64,000 nucleotides of DNA from NCBI GenBank assembly GCA_045837725.1, contig JBEWZL010000202.1, forward strand, positions 496,001 through 560,000. Reading direction: 5' to 3'. A program made the translations under genes and the position numbers. This document shows positions 9,297 through 34,354 of the stretch, in pieces (the first letter of the stretch is position 1; every line of letters begins with the position of its first letter). The notes under the pieces are model-generated. The model did not search any database, was not told the DNA's origin, and worked only from the letters and a program-made list of their open reading frames with translations. The DNA is from Vermamoeba vermiformis (lineage: Eukaryota).

Positions 9297-10495
9297 ATGA
9301 CCTCTCCAAACCCCAACCCTCAGCAACAACAGCTGACAACAGAGTTAATTCAAAAGGTTTGTGACGTCATAGATCACGAATGCTAATTAAATGAATGAAT
9401 AATTTTTTAAAATATTAACAATAATTACCATGCAGTATTTGGACGAAAATCAACAGTTAATTTTAGCGATACTCGAAAATCAAAATATTGGCCGTCTTGA
9501 AGAATGCATCCAGTAAGTATTACCACCCAAAATTGACATTATTAAATTAAATTAAATGGCAATGCGCTCATTGGTTATAAATATTAGATACTCGGCACGG
9601 TTACAACAAAACTTGAAATATTTGGCAACCATTGCTGATTCACAGCCACAAGCCACGGGCTTAATGTATCCGCCAATGTACAACGTAAGATTGCCTACGG
9701 CGCTCGGTTGACAATACTTATTGTTTTGCTTCAGTATAATCAAGCGGCCCTGATGCCACAAATGCCTCAAGTGCCGCAAACACCGCCAATGGTCAATGTA
9801 ATGGATCCGCTCCAACAATACCCGCTGACAGTGCCAGCACCACCACCACAGGTAAAAAAACAAAAAAAATAGCAATACTCCATCCAACGGGAGGGCATGA
9901 AAAAAGGGCTATCACACAAAATTAATTGAGGGTGCATGGTGCACTTGGTAGCACGTCCGCTTTGCATGCGGGAGGTACGGGGATCGAAACCCTGTGCATC
10001 CAACTTTCTTTTTTTTTTTGGCTCCTTGTCGCTGACTCTCGTGCATAGAAAGAGAAAGGTCTTCATTGGACTGCTGAGGAACAACAACGGTTCTTGGATG
10101 CTTTGCAGATGTTCGGAGCCAAAGGTGGGATCAGCTTCTTTTTTGTTTTGTGTCTGTAAATGCCCACTAACGAGCATTTAGATATCAAGAAGATAACAGA
10201 GTACGTTGGCACGAGAACAGCATCGCAAGTGCGCAGTCATCTCCAAAAGCATCAGCAAAAGATGACAAAGGTGATCGGTCGGATCCCATTTACTCCTTCG
10301 GGCACTGCCAAGCGTGCTCCTCAACTGGTCATTACTGCGCCTACCTCTCCATTCCCGCAGTTCCATACGCCAATTACACCGCCGCACTTCACACCACAAT
10401 CGCCGATATTGATCGCGTCAACTCCTTCCACTCCAAATCCAATTCCGTTGTCGCCCATTCCGTCAAACACCAATCAGAACAACACCAATCAGTAA
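9297..10495 (+). CDS. SSXT/SS18(GIF)-type SNH domain protein fused to a SHAQKY-class Myb domain (about 6 exons)
   Basis: Spliced reading: LTTELIQK-YLDENQQLILAILENQNIGRLEECIQ-YSARLQQNLKYLATIAD (SNH domain), a Q/P-rich linker, then HWTAEEQQRFLDALQMFG-DIKKITEYVGTRTASQVRSHLQKH (Myb). Confidence 0.85.
9812..10034 (+). repeat. Copy 1 of a ~225-bp inverted duplication (exon end, splice donor, tRNA-Ala, terminator)
   Basis: Close match to the reverse complement of 12959-13188; the tRNA body is identical. Confidence 0.95.
9930..10002 (+). tRNA. tRNA-Ala(UGC), in an intron of the SSXT-Myb gene
   Basis: Acceptor stem GGGTGCA/TGCATCC with G3:U70. D stem GTGC/GCAC. Anticodon loop TTTGCAT. T arm with GATCGAAAC. 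Oligo-T terminator just downstream. Confidence 0.97.
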
Positions 10496-10851: not shown

Positions 10852-12631
10852 ATGGAGCAAACTGTAAGCAGATGCAATCGTTTTCAGAATTCAGATCTGA
10901 CTTCTAACATTTCTAAAATCAATAAATTAATTACTAAAATACTTTCTTATCATTCCCCGATTAATAGATAATTTACATCTACTTATTTGACTTGATAGTT
11001 AATTTTTGAATTTTGATAGTTTATTGGATACCCTGCCGCTGGGCTGCCAAAAGATGTATGGGGCCAAATCCTACAAAACCTTGGCATATTCGAGCTTGTC
11101 TTCATGCGAGCTACCAATTCAACGTTCTACAACTGGTGCAAAGAATACAAACCGTTCCCGAAGTATTTCGTGTTGGATCAAGACAAGTTCACCGAGTACT
11201 TGGTTGAAAATGGCTTCATATCGTGCCTGGACTATGTTAAGAACGTCTTAAACTTCGAATTGACCGACAAGCTTTGTTCAGTTGCAGCACGATCTGGTCA
11301 AGTTGAAATGCTGAAATATTTAAGGAACCAACGCCTTGCAATCGATCCCAACAAAATAATATTAGAATGCACGCAAGGCACCTGCAACATTGATATGGTG
11401 AAGTACTTGCATGAGACCGGAGCAATTTGGGGAGAAGTCAGAAACAATCGCTTATCGTATTCTGAAACAGCAATGGAAAACATGGCACGTCACGGTCACT
11501 TGTCATGCATGAAATATGCAATGGAGAATGGCTGCACTCAACGAGTCATTCCCTACACTCCTTCAATCGAGTGCTTGGAGTTTGCAATTCAAAACGAATT
11601 CGAATGGAACGCCATACAAATATTGAGCCCGAGAGTTGGTACGAGATCACCGCCGAAACTCAAGAATAATATTTGTGAGGAAGCAGCAAGGTTTGGTAAC
11701 TTTACAATGCTTCAGTACGCTCATCAGCACGGCGTTCCACTCAAAAACAGCGCTAGTTTAGCAGCACAAGCAGGGCATTTAGATTGCTTAGTCTATGCAA
11801 CGAACCCTTTACCGATAGGTGCTGATCTGCCAAACGGCGCAGCAACAATGGAATGTTTCAAATACTTGCTCGACAAGTACCCAAAACGCAATACAACGGT
11901 CATGTGGCGCTATCAAATACAAATAGGCAATATGGAAATTCTACGCTTCATGCTTGAAAACAAGTTTCCGTTGCCAGACGATCGAGAGTTGCTGGCATGG
12001 GCGACTAAGTTCGAAGTGTTCAAATTTCTCGTTGACGAATTGAAAGTGCCTTGTCATTCATTCAATCCGTATTCTCGATTTGCTAAAGAAGGCAATCTCG
12101 ACGGCTTGAAATTTGCATTCGAACGGAATTTACCTTTGTACGCGTCACAGCCCAGCTTTGTACCGATTCGTCCTTCATCTATTATCAACGAAATTATCTG
12201 CAATGCAATTCAGTCGAAGAATGTTGAAGTGTTGAAACTTGTGTGGGAAAAAATAATGCCAAAAGACGAAGTTGTTAATGATCAGTGGTGCAATTATGCT
12301 GTAACCAGCTCAACACCTGAAATTCTCGACTTTTTGAAACAAAAAGGAGCCAAATGGACATCAAAACATCTCACTACTGCATCTGAATCGAGCAATTTGC
12401 AAAATATGGCATACTTGACTCACATAGGCTGTAAGTAATGTACACTATTGTTTGAGAGATTATTAAAGTAGTATTTTAGGTCAATGGAATGATGCTGCTT
12501 GTATCAAAACAAGCGCGATGTGCGTCAAATATACACAACAGCACGGTTGTACTATCAGTCGTTACCCCGTCCTAGTTAAACCTATTGGAGCGGCTCCCAA
12601 TTCAGGACCTGACTATCAAGATTGTTCTTAG
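10852..12631 (+). CDS. F-box-like plus degenerate ankyrin-repeat protein
   Basis: LPKDVWGQILQNL near the N-terminus. Repeats CSVAARSGQVEMLKYL, MARHGHLSCMKYAMENGC, CEEAARFGNFTMLQYAHQHG, AAQAGHLDCLVYA. One ~1.4-kb exon. Start exon is tentative. Confidence 0.8.
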
Positions 12632-12958: not shown

Positions 12959-13188
12959 CAGCGACAAGGAGAGGAACCAAAAAAAATAAAAAAGAAAGTT
13001 GGATGCACAGGGTTTCGATCCCCGTACCTCCCGCATGCAAAGCGGACGTGCTACCAAGTGCACCATGCACCCTCAATTAATTTTGCTTGACAGCCCTTTT
13101 TTCATCCCGTCCCGTTGGATGGAGTATTGCTATGTTTTGGTTTTTTACCTGTGGTGGTGGTGCTGGCACTGTCAGCGGGTATTGTTGG
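12959..13188 (-). repeat. Copy 2 of the ~225-bp inverted duplication
   Basis: Reverse complement of 9812-10034 with a few substitutions and indels outside the tRNA. Confidence 0.95.
13000..13072 (-). tRNA. tRNA-Ala(UGC), second identical copy
   Basis: Exact reverse complement of 9930-10002, followed by an oligo-T terminator on the minus strand. Confidence 0.97.
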
Positions 13189-26534: not shown

Positions 26535-27052
26535 AAAGTCGTAAGAGACGATTCAACTTGAAGAAAATTCGAAATTACGGAATGATCTGTCGAAAACAAG
26601 GGCGAATAAGCCAATTATGGTCGTTAAGCTATGCATTAAGCAACTTACTATCTAAATTATTTGTTTCCGCGGCTTCCATGGTGTTTCACGCGCTGAAAAA
26701 TAGTTGTATAATTTTTGGCCGTCAAAACTGTTCTGCAGGCAAATCTTCTTTTATTCCCGTGCATTTTCTACTGTGCGTGTTTCCACAACGAAGTAAGAGT
26801 TAATAAATAGATCTCACAGCAATTACATGTAGAGATCTAGCTGTGTGCGTACAAGGTGTCAAACGGGACCATTAGGCCTCACACAAAAAAATTCATGGAA
26901 CTAATTCGGATAACCATAGGACAATTAATGGGACGACCGGTCACTTCTTCTTTTACAATCCCAGCCCAGACCACACGGCGCTGTAAAAGATTGGATCTTT
27001 TCCTACCTCAATTTAATTCTGAGCTGCAGCTGCAATATCTTTAGAACCACAG

Positions 27053-30000
27053 ATGACGTCTGTTGTTATTAACTACTTTGATCTAATTTCAAACGAGCTC
27101 ATTGCTGAAGTGGTCAACTTCCTCGATCTCGTGTCATTATTTCGTCTGTCTTGCACTTGTAAACAACTATGTGCATTCAAAAATATTTCTAACGAACAAT
27201 GGCGACGATATTATGCCCAGAAGTGGTTTTTGGAGGACACAGAGCTTGCGATCTATCCAAAGTAAGATTCTCTCTCAAATAATATTTCTGGATGCGCTCA
27301 AAATTTAGATTTTTTTTAAAAATACGGTGAATTGCAACTCTAGTCAGTGGATTAATTAATTGTGTTTTTTCAATTCTGATTTTGTTTATTATTACCAAGC
27401 CACAACTGGCAACAACTGTATCAAGACCGTCTTAAATCAGAGAACGACTATTTATTGTGGGTGGAAAACGCAGCGTCGACACAAGTCAAAGCAAATCAGG
27501 TTCAGGAGATCAGCGAAGAAAGCGCTTACACTGCCATACTCGCAGACGTGAAGAAAACTTATAGAGCAGATGCTAGTAAACCAGACACTTATTACGACCC
27601 ACTCGTGGATCCTTGGGCAATTTTAATACAAGCAAATTCGCAGAAGCTCAACCCACCAATCGCAGTTATTAGAGCTTGTCTTCGATCAATTGAAGAGTTT
27701 TTTTACACCCCATGCAAGTATTATTATTAAGCGCGAGGATAGAGGCCTAACTATTCATTTGAAGTTACGCACGGAGACCAACTTCGTGAAGTTGAATCTG
27801 GCCGTTTTGGAATAGCAGTCACCACTATTGCGAAATATGCCGCAGATGATATCACAATACTAACCGAACTAACCTTATTCGAAATGTTTTTCTCTGGTAA
27901 GCAGCTACATCTCAATTCAAAAAAATTAGATCCGTTGTGGCCTATTATTCTGATATTAACTTCATTGTTAGACGATTTCAAAAATTCTCGCCGCAAGATA
28001 CCTATTGGCTTGTTAGGCCTTTTATCCAAGTATTTGGACTTAACGCTCCCCTTGGATGTGCTTATGGTCGTTACACAGCGATTGTGGGAAGCAGCAGGAG
28101 CAAGTAAGTCCACGCCAAGCAATCTCTGCAGCGATTAATTCTTTGTTGGCAGAGATCGAAGAGGAGTTCTTTGTGGGGTTGGAAATCATTCCCAAAACCA
28201 TCAACATACTACTGAAGAGCACTGACAATGAGATCAAACGCAATTGCATGTTCATTCTCACGTGGTTCTCTCCGACTAGTAAGTCTAACAATATTTTAAA
28301 GAGCGTTTATTAAATTGAGTGGTGGATGACTACTGTCATTATACCGTCATCCGAGCATGATGCGGTGCGATCAAAGAGAGTTTATTCGTCGTTAAATTAC
28401 GCTAAATTATAACCCATCGAATTTGTGGCTCTTAACCTTTTTTTTGCTTTTTGCCTCGCTAGTTGGCGTTGAGGCGTAAATATGTGGTACTATGTGAACT
28501 AGATGTGATATATGTATTTGTTTTTTTTTGCTCATTTCCAATGATTGTAGAGCCCGAACATAACAAGTTTTTGGTCAGCGCTCCGTTAATGCACTTTTTG
28601 ATCGGCGAATTGAATGAAGTGCCCGCTGAAGATGTGCGATGGATTCTGCAGCTCTTGGCGACTTTCGGAGAGTATAGTAAGTAATGCCTTATTTGGGGCT
28701 ATCTGTTAACTCACTTCGCGCAATTAGACGGCTCTGTTGTAGATGAAACTCGTCTCGTACATCGGCTCATGGATTTCATCCGTGACAAGTACTGCGACGA
28801 TCACGTGGTACTGCCGTACTTGTTGGGTGCAGCCAGTGATCTCTGTCTCGACAATTCAAGTACGACCAAGCAATGATACTACTCTTTGATGGTTTAACAT
28901 TCTCGTCGTAGATAATGGTTGCATCGAGTTAGCACAAAACGAGTCCGAGGTAGAATATCTCTTGAGTTGGGTCAAACAGTCCGCTGACCCTGACATTCAA
29001 AAGGTGTCACAACACGCACTGAGTGTCATTGACACACTTGCCAGAAATGGTAAGTCAATGGGTATTTCATCGATCTATTATGAAGTTAACAGTCGAATTA
29101 GAAATTGGTGCCGAGCGGCTGTTTGAAATGGGTGCAATCGACAGACTTTTGCCGTTTATCGAAGATCCAACCAACACGCATTTGTTCAAAGAGTTATACG
29201 ATGCACTCAAGCATTTGACTAGTTTTGCAAATGAGAGCGGTAAGTGCCAGGTTATGTACTCATTGAGCCGTTTATTGATTGTTCCAACTTAAGGATTCGG
29301 CGATGAAATCTTTCCGAAGTTATTGAAGTTCAAGGACGCCCTTCTTGACTGCGGTTACACCTCGGGTTCAGAGCCTACACGGGCAGCATGCGACGAGTTC
29401 TGGTTGACATTTTCATGCAGTACGTCTAAGTTTTGAAAAGTGACACGTGTCAAACTAACGTTACTTAGTGACTACGCCCCCACGCGATGTCTCGATCAAG
29501 CTGATTGACAGGGCCATGCCCCTCATTCTTGCAGAGAGTACCAAGATAAGGACGCGAATAGACGCGGTGTTAGTGCTCGCCAACCTCATGGAAAGCGACA
29601 GTACGTACATCATCATTTCCTCGCTGGACTTTAACGCTAATTTTATCATATGTGAAGTTGCTTTGTTCGAAAACAAATCGTTGACGCCACTGTTCGACTA
29701 CTTGGCCGAGTATTTGATTAACTATGATCACGACGCTGAGCTCCGCAAGCAAAGAAGACAGGAAGGCAATATCGATGAAAACACCTTAGAAGAAGATGAT
29801 GACGAGGATGGTAAGAACGTAGTTATATTAATATGAGTGGGTTCGTAAGTTATATTTTCTTCGCGTAGAAGACAAGGAAGATGAAGTCACCGAAAGTCCG
29901 TGGCCATTAAATTTACTCGTGCAGACTGTTCGCTTTGGTAAGTATATTGCCGTATACAATTTCAATGCGTTTCTTAATCCAATTCTATTTGCAGAGTACA

Positions 30001-30562
30001 TCCAGAATAACGCCCTCCAAAACAAAAGGCTCATTAACAAACTGTTCTCCCTGTTTGATGACGAGACATTGGAGTTTGAAGGTCGCTTCTTGGTCGTGTA
30101 TGCATTCAGCTTCTTAGTTCAAAAGCCTGGTAAGTCCGGTCAGTACTCGTTCGAGCACATCTGACGTGTTTGGCTGAGCAGGTTGGGATTCGGCAAAGGG
30201 CTTAAAATGCATAGAAGAATTTGCACTGGATGCCGAATACGATGTTGAATGGAATTTTGTGTTTGGTGACGTTGAGCCGTACTTACATCTGCTCCAAAAA
30301 GAGAATCCACCGCCGTTGGTTATTTTTGGCTCATGGTTCTTGGCTCATATGTCTATACTAGGTAATAACAAAAGATCATACGATGCATTAAGAACAATAA
30401 TCTGATTGAATTTAACGCATAGAGTATGGTCGTCAAACTTTGAAGAAAGATCTCGATCCAGCGGTCATCACGTGGATGAAAACATACCCTCATCCGCGCG
30501 TGCAGCATAATATGACTCATTTCACTCGAAACATGCAGAAAAAGAGTCGAAGAAAACAATAG
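27053..30562 (+). CDS. F-box plus ARM/HEAT-like helical repeat protein, tandem copy A
   Basis: F-box FDLISNELIAEVVNFLDLVSLFRLSCTCKQL, then helical repeats over many short exons; ends ...SRRKQ*. Confidence 0.75.
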
Positions 30563-30723
30563 AATTTTCCGCTTTAAGATAGGGTAGTGTCCGGTTTTAA
30601 TTTTTTTTTTTTTTTTTGTGGGTTATTTCCATGGTGTTTCACGCGTTTGTAAAAGAATGTTTGGCGCTTTTTGTCTTTTTTCCGTTCGTCAATTTCATTC
30701 TTATTATATCTTTAGGACCACAG

Positions 30724-33700
30724 ATGACATCTGTTGATATTAATAACTACTTTGATATTCTTTCAAACGAGCTCATTGCTGAAGTTGTCAACTTCCTCGA
30801 TCTCGTGTCATTATTTCGTCTGTCTGGCACTTGTAAACAACTGTGTGCATTCAAAAATATTTCTAACGAACAATGGCGACGATATTATGCCCAGAAGTGG
30901 TTTTTGGAGGACAAAGAGCTTGCGATCTATCCGAAGTAAGATTCTCTTAAAATATTTCTGGATGCGCTCAAAATTTAGATTTTTTTTTAAAATACGGTGA
31001 ATCGCAAGTCAAGTCATTTCGTGGATTAATTAATCATGTTTTTTTATTCTGATTTTGTTTATTTTCTAGCCACAACTGGCAACAACTGTATCAAGACCGT
31101 CTTAAATCAGAGAACGAATATTTATTGTGGGTGAAAAACGCAGCGTCGGCACAAGTCAAAGCAGATCAAGCTCAGGAGATCAGCGAAGAAGCTTACACTG
31201 CCATACTCGCAGACGTGAAGAAAACTTATCGAGCTACCAGAGCAGATGCTAGTAAACCAGACACTTATTACGACCCACTCGTGGATCCTTGGGCAATTTT
31301 AATACAAGCAAATTCGCAGAAGCTCAACCCACCAATCGCAGTTATTAGAGCTTGTCTTCGATCAATTGACGAGTTTTTTTACACCCCATGTAAGTATTAT
31401 TACTAAGCGCGAGGATAGAGGCCTAACTACTTATTTGAAGTTACGCACGGAGACCAACTTCGCGAAGTTGAATCTGGCCGTTTTGGAATAGCAGTCACCA
31501 CTATTGCGAAATATGCTGCAGATGATGTCACAGTACTAACGGAGCTGACGCTATTCAAAATTTTTTTCTCTGGTAAGCCACTACGTCAATCAATTCAAAA
31601 AACTTTATCAGATCCGTTTGTTGAGGCCTATTATTCTGATATTAACTTCATTGTTAGACGATTTCAAAAATTCTCACCGCAAGATACCTATTGGCTTGTT
31701 AGGCCTTTTATCCAAGTATTTGGACCTTACGCTCCCCTTGGATGTGCTTATGGTCGTTACACAGCGATTGTGGGAAGCAGCAGGAGCAAGTAAGTCCACG
31801 CCAAGCAATCTCTGCAGCAATTAATCCTTTATTCGTAGAAACCGTCGAAGACGAGTTCTTTGTGGGCTTGGAAATCATTCCCAAAATCATCAACATATTA
31901 CTGAAGAGCACTGACGATGATCTCAAACGCAATTGCATGTTCATTCTCACATGGTTCTCTCCGACTAGTAAGTCTAAAAATATTTTAAAGAGAGCTTATT
32001 AAATTGAGTGGTGGATGACTACTGTCATTATACCGTCATCCGAGCACGATGTGCGAGTTGTTTAACTTCAAGATCGGCGCAGGAAGTGCTCGCGTTCTTT
32101 GTTAGTACAGCAAGTAGTGACCCGAAGACGATGTTGCTCTCCATCTCGGGCACGACCACACTAACAAGAATGCACCGCTTCCCGTCCGATCAGCGAAGTT
32201 AAGCTTGTTCAGGCCTTCTTAGTACTGGGGTAGGAGACTACCTGGGAATCGGAGGTGTTGTGCTCTTATCTTTTTACTTTTTACCAACAACCTGTTATTG
32301 TTTTACTATCGTTACCTTTGTTTAGAGCCCGAACACAGGAAACTTTTAGTCAATGCCCCATTTATGCACTATTTGATTGGCGAATTGGATGAAGCACCAG
32401 CAGAAGAAGTCCGATGGATTTTGCAACTTTTGACGACGTTTGGAGAGTGCAGTACGTTTCTTATTTGGTCTAATGACTGTCGATTAACTTCGCGCAATTA
32501 GACGGCTCTGTTGTCAATGAAACTCGTCTCGTACATCTGCTCATGAATTTCATCCGTGGCAAGTACCGCGACGATCATGTGGTGTTGCCCTACTTGTTGA
32601 ACGCTGTCAGCGATCTCTGTCTAGACAATTCAAGTAAGCAGAACACTTCGAATTCAACTTGGCTAACTTTTTTACCACAGATAATTGTTGCACCGAGTTG
32701 GCACAAAGCGAGTCCGACCTAGAATACCTGCTAAGTTTGGTCAAGCATTCCGCTTTAAATGAAGTTAAAAAGGTCTCGCAGTGCGCGCTAAATGCCATCG
32801 ATACCGTCGCCCGAAATGGTAAGTCAAAAAGAATTTCATCCACGTGAATAAAGCTCACGCGCCGAATCAGAAATTGGTGCTGAAAGACTGCTCGAATTGA
32901 ATGCTTTAGATAGACTTTTGCCACTGATTGAAGATACTACCAATGCGTATTTGTTCAAAGAACTGTATTATACACTTAAGTATATGACTAGCTTTGGAAA
33001 TAAGAATGGTAAGAGCAAGGTTATGCTACCGTTTTAAAACTAATAAGCCCTTGAATTAGGACTCGGTGATGAAATCTTTCCGAAGTTATTGAAGTTCAAA
33101 GACGCGCTTTTTGATCGCGGTTACGCATCAGATTCAGACTTTATACGAGCAGCGTGCGACGAGTTCTGGATGACATTTTCATGCAGTACGTCTCTGTACT
33201 TAACAGTGACACGTGTCAAACTAACGCTGCTTAGTGACTACGCCCCCACGCGATGTCTCGCTCAGAATTATAGATCGAGTCATGCCTCTCATTATCGAAG
33301 AAACAACGCGATTACGAACGCGACTAGATGCTGCTATATTGCTCGCTAACCTTATTGAAATCGACAGTAAGATCCGCAAAAAATCGCGTCGTGTCTTCGC
33401 TGGACATCAGCTCTAATATCCTATTCGCAGTTGGTTTGTTTGAAGGCAAGCAGATGGTGCCGTTGTTCAGCTATTTGGCTGAGTATTTGATCACTTTTGA
33501 TCCCGAAAAAGAGCACGCTACGCTCCGCAAACAATGGAAAGAGGAAGATAAAAAAATGAAGAATGTTAACAACGAAGAAGACGAAGAAGACGACGAAGAC
33601 GATGGTAACCATACAACATGTGATATAATTGATTAATAAGTTGACTTGTTCGTAGAAAATGAAGAAGCAGAAGAATTGATATTTGAATGTCCTTGGCCGT

Positions 33701-34354
33701 TGAATTTGCTATCTCAGCTTGCTCGCTTTGGTACGCAGATAGTTTAGTAATATTTTTTTACCTACCATTTGTTAATCGAATTCTTTTTGATCCAGATTAC
33801 ATCCAGAACAACATGATCCACCACGAAAGACTTATTCAGAAGCTGTTTTCCTTGGATGAAGACGAATCATTAGAATTCGAGGGTCGTTTCATGGTCGCTT
33901 ACATATTTAGCTTCTTAGTTGGAATCCCTGGTAAGCTCTGTCATGAATTGCCAGTGCATCTGACTTTCCTCGGATCAGGTTGGGATTCGGCAAAGGCCTT
34001 AGAATGCATTGAAGAATTTGCCCTTGATGCCGAGTACGATGTTGAGTGGAATTTTGTGTTAGCTGCAGTTGAGCCGTATGTGCATTTAGTACGAAAAGAG
34101 AATCCGCTGCCATTAACCATTTTCGGATCGTGGTTCTTGGCTCATATGTCAACACTAGGTAATTACCTAACATCGGTTTTTCGAGTCCCTGTTATCTGAT
34201 CGCTTCTTGCACAGAGTCCGGTCGTCAAACTTTGAAGAAAGATCTCGATCCAGAAGTTGTTACGTGGATGAAAACATACCCTCATCCGCGCGTGCAGCAT
34301 AATATGGCTCACTTCACTCGAAACATGCAGAAAAAGAGTCGAAGAAAACAATAG
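30724..34354 (+). CDS. F-box plus ARM/HEAT-like helical repeat protein, tandem copy B
   Basis: Paralogous to copy A exon by exon, with the same intron positions; ends ...SRRKQ*. Confidence 0.75.
32148..32266 (+). rRNA. 5S rRNA gene, single copy, intronic
   Basis: ~119 nt. Helix I GGGCACGAC/GTTGTGCTC. Conserved CCCGTCCGATC, GAAGTTAAGC (box A), TTAGTACT, CCTGGGAA. T-runs downstream. Confidence 0.93.

Follow-up and report, generated by a model that had tools for sequence, protein, structure and literature searches.

A degenerate inverted 5S rRNA fragment upstream of a 5S rRNA gene in a predicted F-box gene intron of Vermamoeba vermiformis

The DNA analysed here is a stretch of 64,000 nucleotides (nt) from Vermamoeba vermiformis (assembly GCA_045837725.1, contig JBEWZL010000202.1, positions 496,001 to 560,000), referred to below as the window, and it carries a complete 5S ribosomal RNA (rRNA) gene in sense orientation within a predicted intron of a gene for an F-box protein. 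Upstream of the 5S gene lies a short conserved motif, and upstream of this motif is a stretch that resembles the 5' half of 5S rRNA in inverted orientation, which we call the leader. An initial annotation of this DNA proposed that in the host pre-mRNA the leader pairs with the 5S sequence and blocks its fold, and that this pairing may keep 5S-binding proteins off the intron, compact the intron for splicing or act as a splicing switch. Our analysis confirms the inverted similarity and the predicted folds, and points to another explanation, in which the leader is probably the decaying remnant of an inverted piece of the 5S 5' half, joined to the promoter-like motif of a dispersed 5S unit, with the masking hairpin as an incidental result.

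The 5S gene and its inverted leader

An Rfam scan of the window found a single 5S rRNA gene, with a score of 104.7 bits against a gathering threshold of 38 and with positions 1-120 of the 120 model positions covered. Folded alone, the 5S sequence takes a three-domain form with a minimum free energy of -41.6 kcal/mol. The gene is followed by two T5 runs (Table 1), the expected terminator of RNA polymerase III (Pol III). Summed contig depth stays high through the bin 32262-32295 and drops from 32296, and the loose ends at 32275 and 32282, where placed reads and contigs part from the window, are the points at which other 5S copies diverge. The region 32144-32267 is identical to the 5S of the metagenome contig L001 (124 nt at 100%).

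When the 118 nt upstream of the gene were reverse-complemented and aligned locally to the 5S sequence, a match to 5S nt 13-55 was recovered in which 36 of 47 columns are identical, with 5 mismatches and 6 gap columns. The local score of 30 was reached by none of 2000 shuffles (mean 14.4, maximum 25) and by none of the 2152 other 118-nt pieces of the window on both strands. The inverted similarity is real and beyond chance, yet it is degenerate. A MAFFT alignment of the 5S with the reverse-complemented leader missed the match that the local aligner recovered, and the minus strand of the leader gave no match to RF00001 in an Rfam search at E up to 10. Weak Rfam matches to ceN30, MIAT and ceN40, also at E up to 10, fell below their gathering thresholds and were treated as chance. 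The leader is an old fragment of 45 nt, about 77% identical to 5S, which ends at 5S nt 55 and contains neither the intermediate element nor box C.

The initial annotation had described the upstream region as five successive blocks antisense to segments of the 5S. All five lie where they were placed and each pairs with the 5S segment assigned to it in the minimum-energy fold (Table 1). As antisense 5S, four of the blocks hold up; the fifth and innermost, GTAGTGACCCGA, falls within a motif of 16 nt that other 5S copies also have upstream, and because it belongs to that motif the antisense fragment proper is limited to 32062-32106, which runs from 5S nt 55 to nt 13.

Table 1. Positions of the features discussed, numbered within the window
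Feature	Position	Strand	Basis
Tandem paralog of the host gene (copy A)	27035-30562		alignment to copy B
Host gene (copy B), F-box protein	30706-34354	+	Pfam F-box PF00646
Predicted intron, 358 nt, phase 1, GTAAGT...TTTAG	31968-32325	+	gene model
Second, weaker copy of the upstream-motif region, GTCATCCGAGCACGATGT	32035-32052	+	direct repeat D1
Degenerate inverted copy of 5S nt 13-55 (leader)	32062-32106	-	local alignment
Conserved upstream motif of the 5S unit, GCAAGTAGTGACCCGAA, -38 to -22	32110-32126	+	recurrence at other 5S loci
Full-length eukaryotic 5S rRNA gene	32148-32266	+	Rfam RF00001
Two T5 runs, expected Pol III terminator	32271-32275 and 32278-32282	+	direct sequence reading
Outer three block pairings	32062-32069:32195-32202; 32072-32077:32186-32191; 32082-32088:32176-32182		minimum-energy fold
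Inner two block pairings	32092-32106:32160-32173; 32114-32125:32146-32156		minimum-energy fold

Reads and contigs were placed on the window at 90% likeness. In the DNA run of the source organism (X2), summed contig depth, which is not a copy number, is about 300-1200 in the flanks, 86,000-334,000 over 32126-32261, 3,900 over 32092-32125 and about 310 over 32058-32091. This shows a multi-copy 5S unit whose common part begins near 32110, preceded by a leader that is single-copy at 90% likeness.

The host intron and its predicted folds

The host gene, copy B of a tandem pair, matches the F-box family at its N terminus with an E value of 2.7e-5 and 24.3 bits against a cut-off of 20.5, and the other 9 of the 10 exon-sized host frames scanned gave no Pfam family above cut-off. 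The intron that holds the 5S gene begins with GTAAGT at 31968 and ends with AG at 32324-32325, the open frames that flank it are continuous when joined (...SPT-K-PEHRK), and the exon junction is matched in the paralog, copy A, at 28280-28549. The intronic location of the 5S gene is a prediction of this gene model, and the splice junction has no RNA confirmation in two RNA runs labelled with the same species (X21 and X23, of each of which about 46-48% was read), where depth is 0 on both flanking exons.

The identity between copies A and B is 91.9% as far as 32051 (copy A: 28362) and falls to 73.0% from 32323 (copy A: 28548) onwards. This sharp step looks like the end of a gene-conversion tract, falling where the two introns differ, at the start of the 5S-bearing part. 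Between these points copy A has 185 unrelated bases in place of the 271 bases of copy B that contain the leader, the motif and the 5S gene, which leaves no clean empty site and rules out a simple insertion of a leader-plus-5S block into copy B. Within the copy A intron, 28415-28455 is marginally like the 3' end of 5S followed by a T-run terminator; this likeness, in a partly T-rich stretch, was equalled by 23 of 1000 and by 47 of 500 shuffles. Directly before it stands a motif-like AACCCATCGAA, and the sequence may be the scar of a 5S copy that copy A has lost. The part of the intron that is common to both paralogs also contains the second, weaker copy of the upstream-motif region, which lies upstream of the antisense fragment (28345-28362 in copy A) and is like 32117-32134 at 14 of 18 nt.

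In X21 and X23 the leader interval 32058-32091 has zero depth, as do the flanking host exons. Since reads of the 92%-identical paralog would also map to the upstream exon at 90%, neither paralog is detectably expressed in these runs. The RNA reads that do cover the 5S gene are reads of the multi-copy family, most of them diverging in the flanks, and they are not assignable to the copy at 32148. At position 32268 the window has an A where most other 5S copies have a T (29 of 34 X21 reads and 11 of 14 X23 reads), and in a few X21 reads a stretch of 18 A's follows 32268, a sign that the poly(A)-type libraries may contain oligoadenylated 5S transcripts. In both runs the loose ends at 32142-32146 belong to reads from other 5S loci that run 49-103 nt upstream (median loose length). 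Some 5S units are covered by longer transcripts, which are probably of RNA polymerase II (Pol II) origin.

Folding of 32040-32270 gave -93.3 kcal/mol, an energy that 0 of 200 shuffles equalled (z = -5.41) and that is lower by about 21 kcal/mol than the sum of -72.5 obtained when leader and 5S were folded apart. The fold contains a long hairpin with 45 pairs between leader and 5S. In the context of the whole intron with 60 nt of exon on each side, the mean pair probability is 0.00 for helix I, 0.00 for helices II/III and 0.94 for helices IV/V of the 5S, and the leader:5S pairs are mostly at 0.93-1.00. The transcript that starts at 32148 does not include the leader, and there the corresponding values are 0.99, 0.86 and 0.91. 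Prefix folds indicate that the hairpin is complete, with 46 pairs, once 5S nt 1-55 have been made (prefix ending at 32202). In the read-through fold the weaker motif copy takes part as well, in that 32042-32051 replaces the 5' strand of helix I as the partner of its 3' strand, at the 5S 3' end. The predictions agree with the initial annotation in two respects, namely that the leader would block the 5S fold, with helices I-III lost and IV/V kept, and that the leader-free Pol III transcript is predicted to fold natively.

The initial annotation also noted two differences from a perfect inverse that are compatible with G-U pairing on the plus strand. The hairpin energy is -56.2 kcal/mol for the plus strand and -60.6 kcal/mol for the minus strand, and only 3 of the 45 leader:5S pairs are G-U. 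As the hairpin is no less stable on the minus strand, compatibility with G-U pairing does not point to a plus-strand RNA.

These folds bear on the idea that the leader is a selected 'anti-5S' element, which pairs with the 5' half of the 5S in the pre-mRNA and so keeps L5, TFIIIA and La off the intron, or whose hairpin competes with protein binding and thereby adjusts splicing, as a switch resembling the plant P5SM element. The fold is as this idea claims, since helices I-III are lost in the pre-mRNA and present in the Pol III transcript, and the hairpin would form as soon as the 5' half of the 5S has been transcribed. It is weakened, however, by the missing plus-strand bias, by a promoter-like motif common to 5S units that accounts for one of the five blocks, and by helices IV/V, which remain folded and would leave part of the 5S surface unmasked. 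The host gene, moreover, encodes an F-box protein and is unconnected with the supply of 5S, and it has zero transcripts in the two RNA runs. Taken with the other 5S loci described below, we regard selection for masking as quite improbable.

The upstream motif and other 5S loci

The 16-mer GCAAGTAGTGACCCGA (32110-32125) is also present in L001, without a mismatch (16 of 16 nt) and with its start at -81 relative to the 5S, and the motif occurs twice in a second metagenome contig, L002 (14 of 14 and 13 of 13 nt), at about -38, which is the spacing seen in the window. Reads and contigs of four runs were placed on 31650-32650; among the matches listed, GTGACCCGAAC is present in 6 of the 9 loose ends just upstream of the 5S start (places 32139-32148), and the remaining ones are an X2 loose end at 32139 with GACCCATAA instead and two that lack the motif. 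Within the 64-kb window the motif has one match, on the plus strand, when up to 3 mismatches are allowed. Judged by this recurrence, 32110-32126 is a motif conserved upstream of the 5S units of this lineage, and it is probably a promoter element. Because the same motif is found at 5S loci that have no antisense leader (L001 and L002), the innermost block cannot be counted as antisense 5S. The window has no copy of the motif on the reverse strand, and a head-to-head pair of complete units was therefore ruled out as the origin of the inverted arrangement.

The motif resembles an element known from other amoebozoans. The Dictyostelium upstream sequence element (DUSE), [AT]CCCA[AT]AA, is described in the available text of PMC3188802 and PMC7919456 as lying about 60-63 nt upstream of many non-coding RNA genes transcribed by Pol II or Pol III, and the same text of PMC7919456 does not expect it to be conserved outside Dictyostelia. 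Both are short CCC-containing motifs found upstream of amoebozoan small-RNA genes at several loci, and GACCCATAA, from another 5S locus of the source genome (the X2 loose end at 32139), matches the DUSE exactly, at 8 of 8 positions. In contrast, the window copy ACCCGAAG and the L002 copies fit 6 of 8 positions by eye, the CCC core is found at about -31 (window and L002) or about -71 (L001) instead of about -60 to -63, and the conserved block of the 5S units is longer, at 16 nt. We treat the resemblance as a lead only.

A different role for this motif would be as part of a processing stem, in which GTGACCCGA pairs with the 5S 5' end, TCGGGCAC, in a precursor initiated upstream, and the antisense stretch merely lengthens the stem. 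The two segments do pair in the predicted fold (innermost pairing, Table 1), both partners are conserved at L001 and L002, and the motif is included in the RNA reads at other loci. However, the spacing between motif and gene varies from -38 to -81, the motif pairs elsewhere in the fold of L001, no covariation is visible since both sides are invariant, and the motif is more like the DUSE as the available part of PMC3188802 gives it. A processing stem is, in our judgement, very unlikely indeed.

A scan of metagenome contigs with a 5S 20-mer found two loci, L001 and L002; this 20-mer and a second 23-mer had 0 matches in prokaryote genome contigs and 0 in viral contigs. In L001 (13-461, minus strand) the identical 5S follows a tRNA gene of the same strand at a distance of about 260 nt and is situated past the 3' end of a gene similar to Xaa-Pro peptidases. 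L002 (1224-1375) has two tandem motif copies, the first followed by only 7 nt of 5S and the second by 5S nt 1 to about 52 (96% identity over 52 nt) and then directly by T5. A promoter-bearing unit cut short in this way could make a half-5S RNA. The 5S-derived sequence of L002 is in sense orientation and, as it comes after a PIP5K-like exon that ends with a GTAAGC donor, is probably intronic. Its truncation at about nt 52 is close to nt 55, where the antisense fragment of the window ends, and as a forward copy cut at this point it indicates that 5'-half 5S fragments arise in this lineage.

The alignment test that detects the leader in the window finds none at L001 or L002, where 692 of 1000 and 877 of 1000 shuffles, respectively, score at least as high. 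Thus 0 of 2 fully readable loci carry a leader, and this includes the probably intronic L002. For the masking idea the contig is two-sided: like the window it has sense 5S-derived sequence in a probable intron, but it lacks the element that should mask it.

Leader-like sequence was nevertheless found in a water-metagenome run (X5). Its single-copy flanking contigs, from a related organism, diverge from the corresponding window sequence by 4-6% (record 9 at 13 positions in 221 nt, record 16 at 15 in 358 nt), its 5S contigs are identical to the window 5S, and three contigs (records 10, 11 and 12) have leader-like sequence, which favours the masking idea to the extent that they represent other loci. 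Record 10, which is either the ortholog or another locus, aligns with 32051-32122 apart from 4 substitutions and an insertion of 3 nt; among the changes listed, G32088A would disrupt a G-C pair, and a bulge accommodates both C32091T and the inserted bases. Record 11 parts from the window at 32110, and the sequence it has there is antisense to 5S nt 13-42 at 24 of 30 positions, as counted by eye on a 30-letter consensus. It ends in ...CTTGTTAGT adjoining the motif, as in the window, with substitutions that differ from those of the window. Record 12 has a weaker resemblance of the same kind, again by eye and from a 30-letter consensus. From these comparisons it appears that a composite unit of antisense fragment, motif and 5S was copied and that the fragment then decayed independently, with motif and gene remaining fixed.

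The leader is degenerate and the 5S is 100% identical to L001 over 124 nt, and the leader therefore evolves much faster than the gene. This drift argues against a function, because an element that pairs with an invariant partner is expected to be nearly invariant itself; leader copies that vary beside an invariant 5S do not sit well with masking.

The recurrence in X5 also raises the possibility that the inverted repeat is functional in a subfamily of 5S units irrespective of the host gene, either because the hairpin feeds RNA interference (RNAi) and yields 5S-directed small RNAs, or because a DNA foldback drives or marks the spread of the unit. The junction of antisense nt 13 with the motif is the same in the window and in record 11, which implies that the whole composite unit was copied, and read-through RNAs do exist, as the reads extending upstream at other 5S loci demonstrate. 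The 45-bp bulged hairpin may also resemble the hairpins of young inverted duplications. Set against this are the single-copy status of the leader in X2, where depth is 309.6 at 32058-32091 compared to 215,000-334,000 over the 5S, the zero RNA reads on the leader in two runs, and the two leaderless loci L001 and L002. We therefore consider a function of this kind unlikely.

Origin and meaning of the leader

The explanation that we favour, and hold to be probable, is that part of a 5S 5' half was joined in inverted orientation to the promoter-like motif of a dispersed 5S unit and has been decaying since. V. vermiformis, an amoebozoan, would have many dispersed 5S units, each made up of the upstream motif of about 16 nt, a 119-nt gene and T-run terminators, and one such unit would sit in sense orientation inside the predicted intron of the F-box gene, with the decaying fragment (nt 55 to 13) directly upstream of its motif. 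The fragment would be a by-product of a DNA-level duplication, by inversion or template switching, of a 5S copy truncated to its 5' half, and the fusion of fragment and motif would later have been copied as a unit. 5S genes have a type 1 promoter, with an internal control region. A fragment without the internal control elements downstream of box A would be transcriptionally dead, and it would drift while gene and motif stay fixed. Pol III transcripts starting at 32148 would be free of the fragment and would fold normally. Pol II read-through RNA, on the other hand, would fold into the imperfect 45-bp hairpin in which helices I-III of the 5S are masked, as a side effect and not as a selected function.

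Several observations weigh against this explanation. The predicted hairpin is strong and specific, with z = -5.41 and a pairing probability near 1 in the pre-mRNA context, and after about 25% decay the leader is still predicted to block the 5S fold fully, as a masking element would. The leader recurs at more than one 5S locus, and such persistence could reflect selection. X21 and X23 may simply not express the host gene, and the comparisons with records 11 and 12 that suggest independent decay were made by eye from 30-letter consensus strings. The leader survey, finally, covers two other fully readable loci, a sample too small to give the frequency of leaders among 5S units or a link with location in introns.

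On balance, the function that the initial annotation proposed (shielding of the intron from 5S-binding proteins, compaction, or a P5SM-like switch) is not borne out: there is no plus-strand bias, the fifth block is the motif, neither of the two other loci has the leader, leader copies differ while the 5S is identical, and the host paralogs have zero reads in two RNA runs. The alternative that it had itself named, a neutral remnant of an inverted duplication, fits best, with a function still compatible with our tests.

Truncated 5S pseudogenes have been reported in filamentous fungi, fish and humans (in the available text of PMC3215682, citing Rooney and Ward 2005). The leader has features of a truncated and inverted pseudogene of this type, in so far as its sequence indicates partial similarity to 5S, is unrecognisable as 5S to a 5S model and evolves faster than the gene. 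It is likewise a partial copy, apparently unable to fold or be transcribed as 5S, that lies among dispersed functional copies and diverges while the gene is fixed, and a forward 5'-half copy is present in the same lineage (L002). Unlike the reported cases, the fragment in the window is in inverted orientation and directly adjoins the promoter-like motif of a complete gene, and in read-through RNA it would pair with the 5' half of that live gene. Fungal 5S pseudogenes may for the most part be 5' halves.

The comparison with P5SM is less favourable. According to the available text of PMC3378873, which draws on Hammond et al. 2009, P5SM is an exonised 5S mimic in a suicide exon of TFIIIA, conserved across land plants, that binds L5 and thereby causes exon skipping. 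The window shares with it a 5S-related RNA structure inside a pre-mRNA and the idea of a readout by 5S-binding proteins. However, the window carries a genuine 5S gene, placed in a predicted intron of an F-box gene unrelated to TFIIIA and not in an exon, its leader is predicted to hide a 5S fold (helices I-III at 0.00) where P5SM presents one, and no conservation or regulation was found for the leader. The element in the window is not of the P5SM type and appears instead to act like a truncated 5S pseudogene. Narrow searches of the literature, in main texts only, found no description of intronic 5S genes or antisense 5S leaders arranged in this way.

Elsewhere in the window, two identical tRNA-Ala(TGC) genes in inverted orientation (9930-10002 on the plus strand and 13000-13072 on the minus strand) flank an intronless open frame of 472 amino acids at 11020-12438, and there is a vacuolin gene whose best named relatives are from Arcella and dictyostelids, at 65-69% identity, which indicates an amoebozoan outside Dictyostelia.

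A broader form of the functional idea is that there exists, in this amoebozoan lineage, a subfamily of dispersed 5S units with a built-in 'anti-5S' leader, which is silent for Pol III and folds Pol II read-through or intronic 5S into a hairpin, thus preventing the titration of 5S-binding proteins or the entry of such RNA into ribosome assembly, or routing it to RNAi. We give this proposal little credence, but were it true it would be a cis-acting means of discriminating a 'gene product' from a 'passenger copy' by the transcription start site alone. Similarly, a selected masking hairpin would represent a new mechanism by which the fate of an embedded small-RNA gene depends on the transcribing polymerase. 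If the leader is neutral, the locus is an example of how dispersed 5S families shed truncated and inverted fragments. For amoebozoan genomics, the locus suggests that 5S units carry a conserved DUSE-like upstream motif and that they can occupy the sense orientation within predicted introns.

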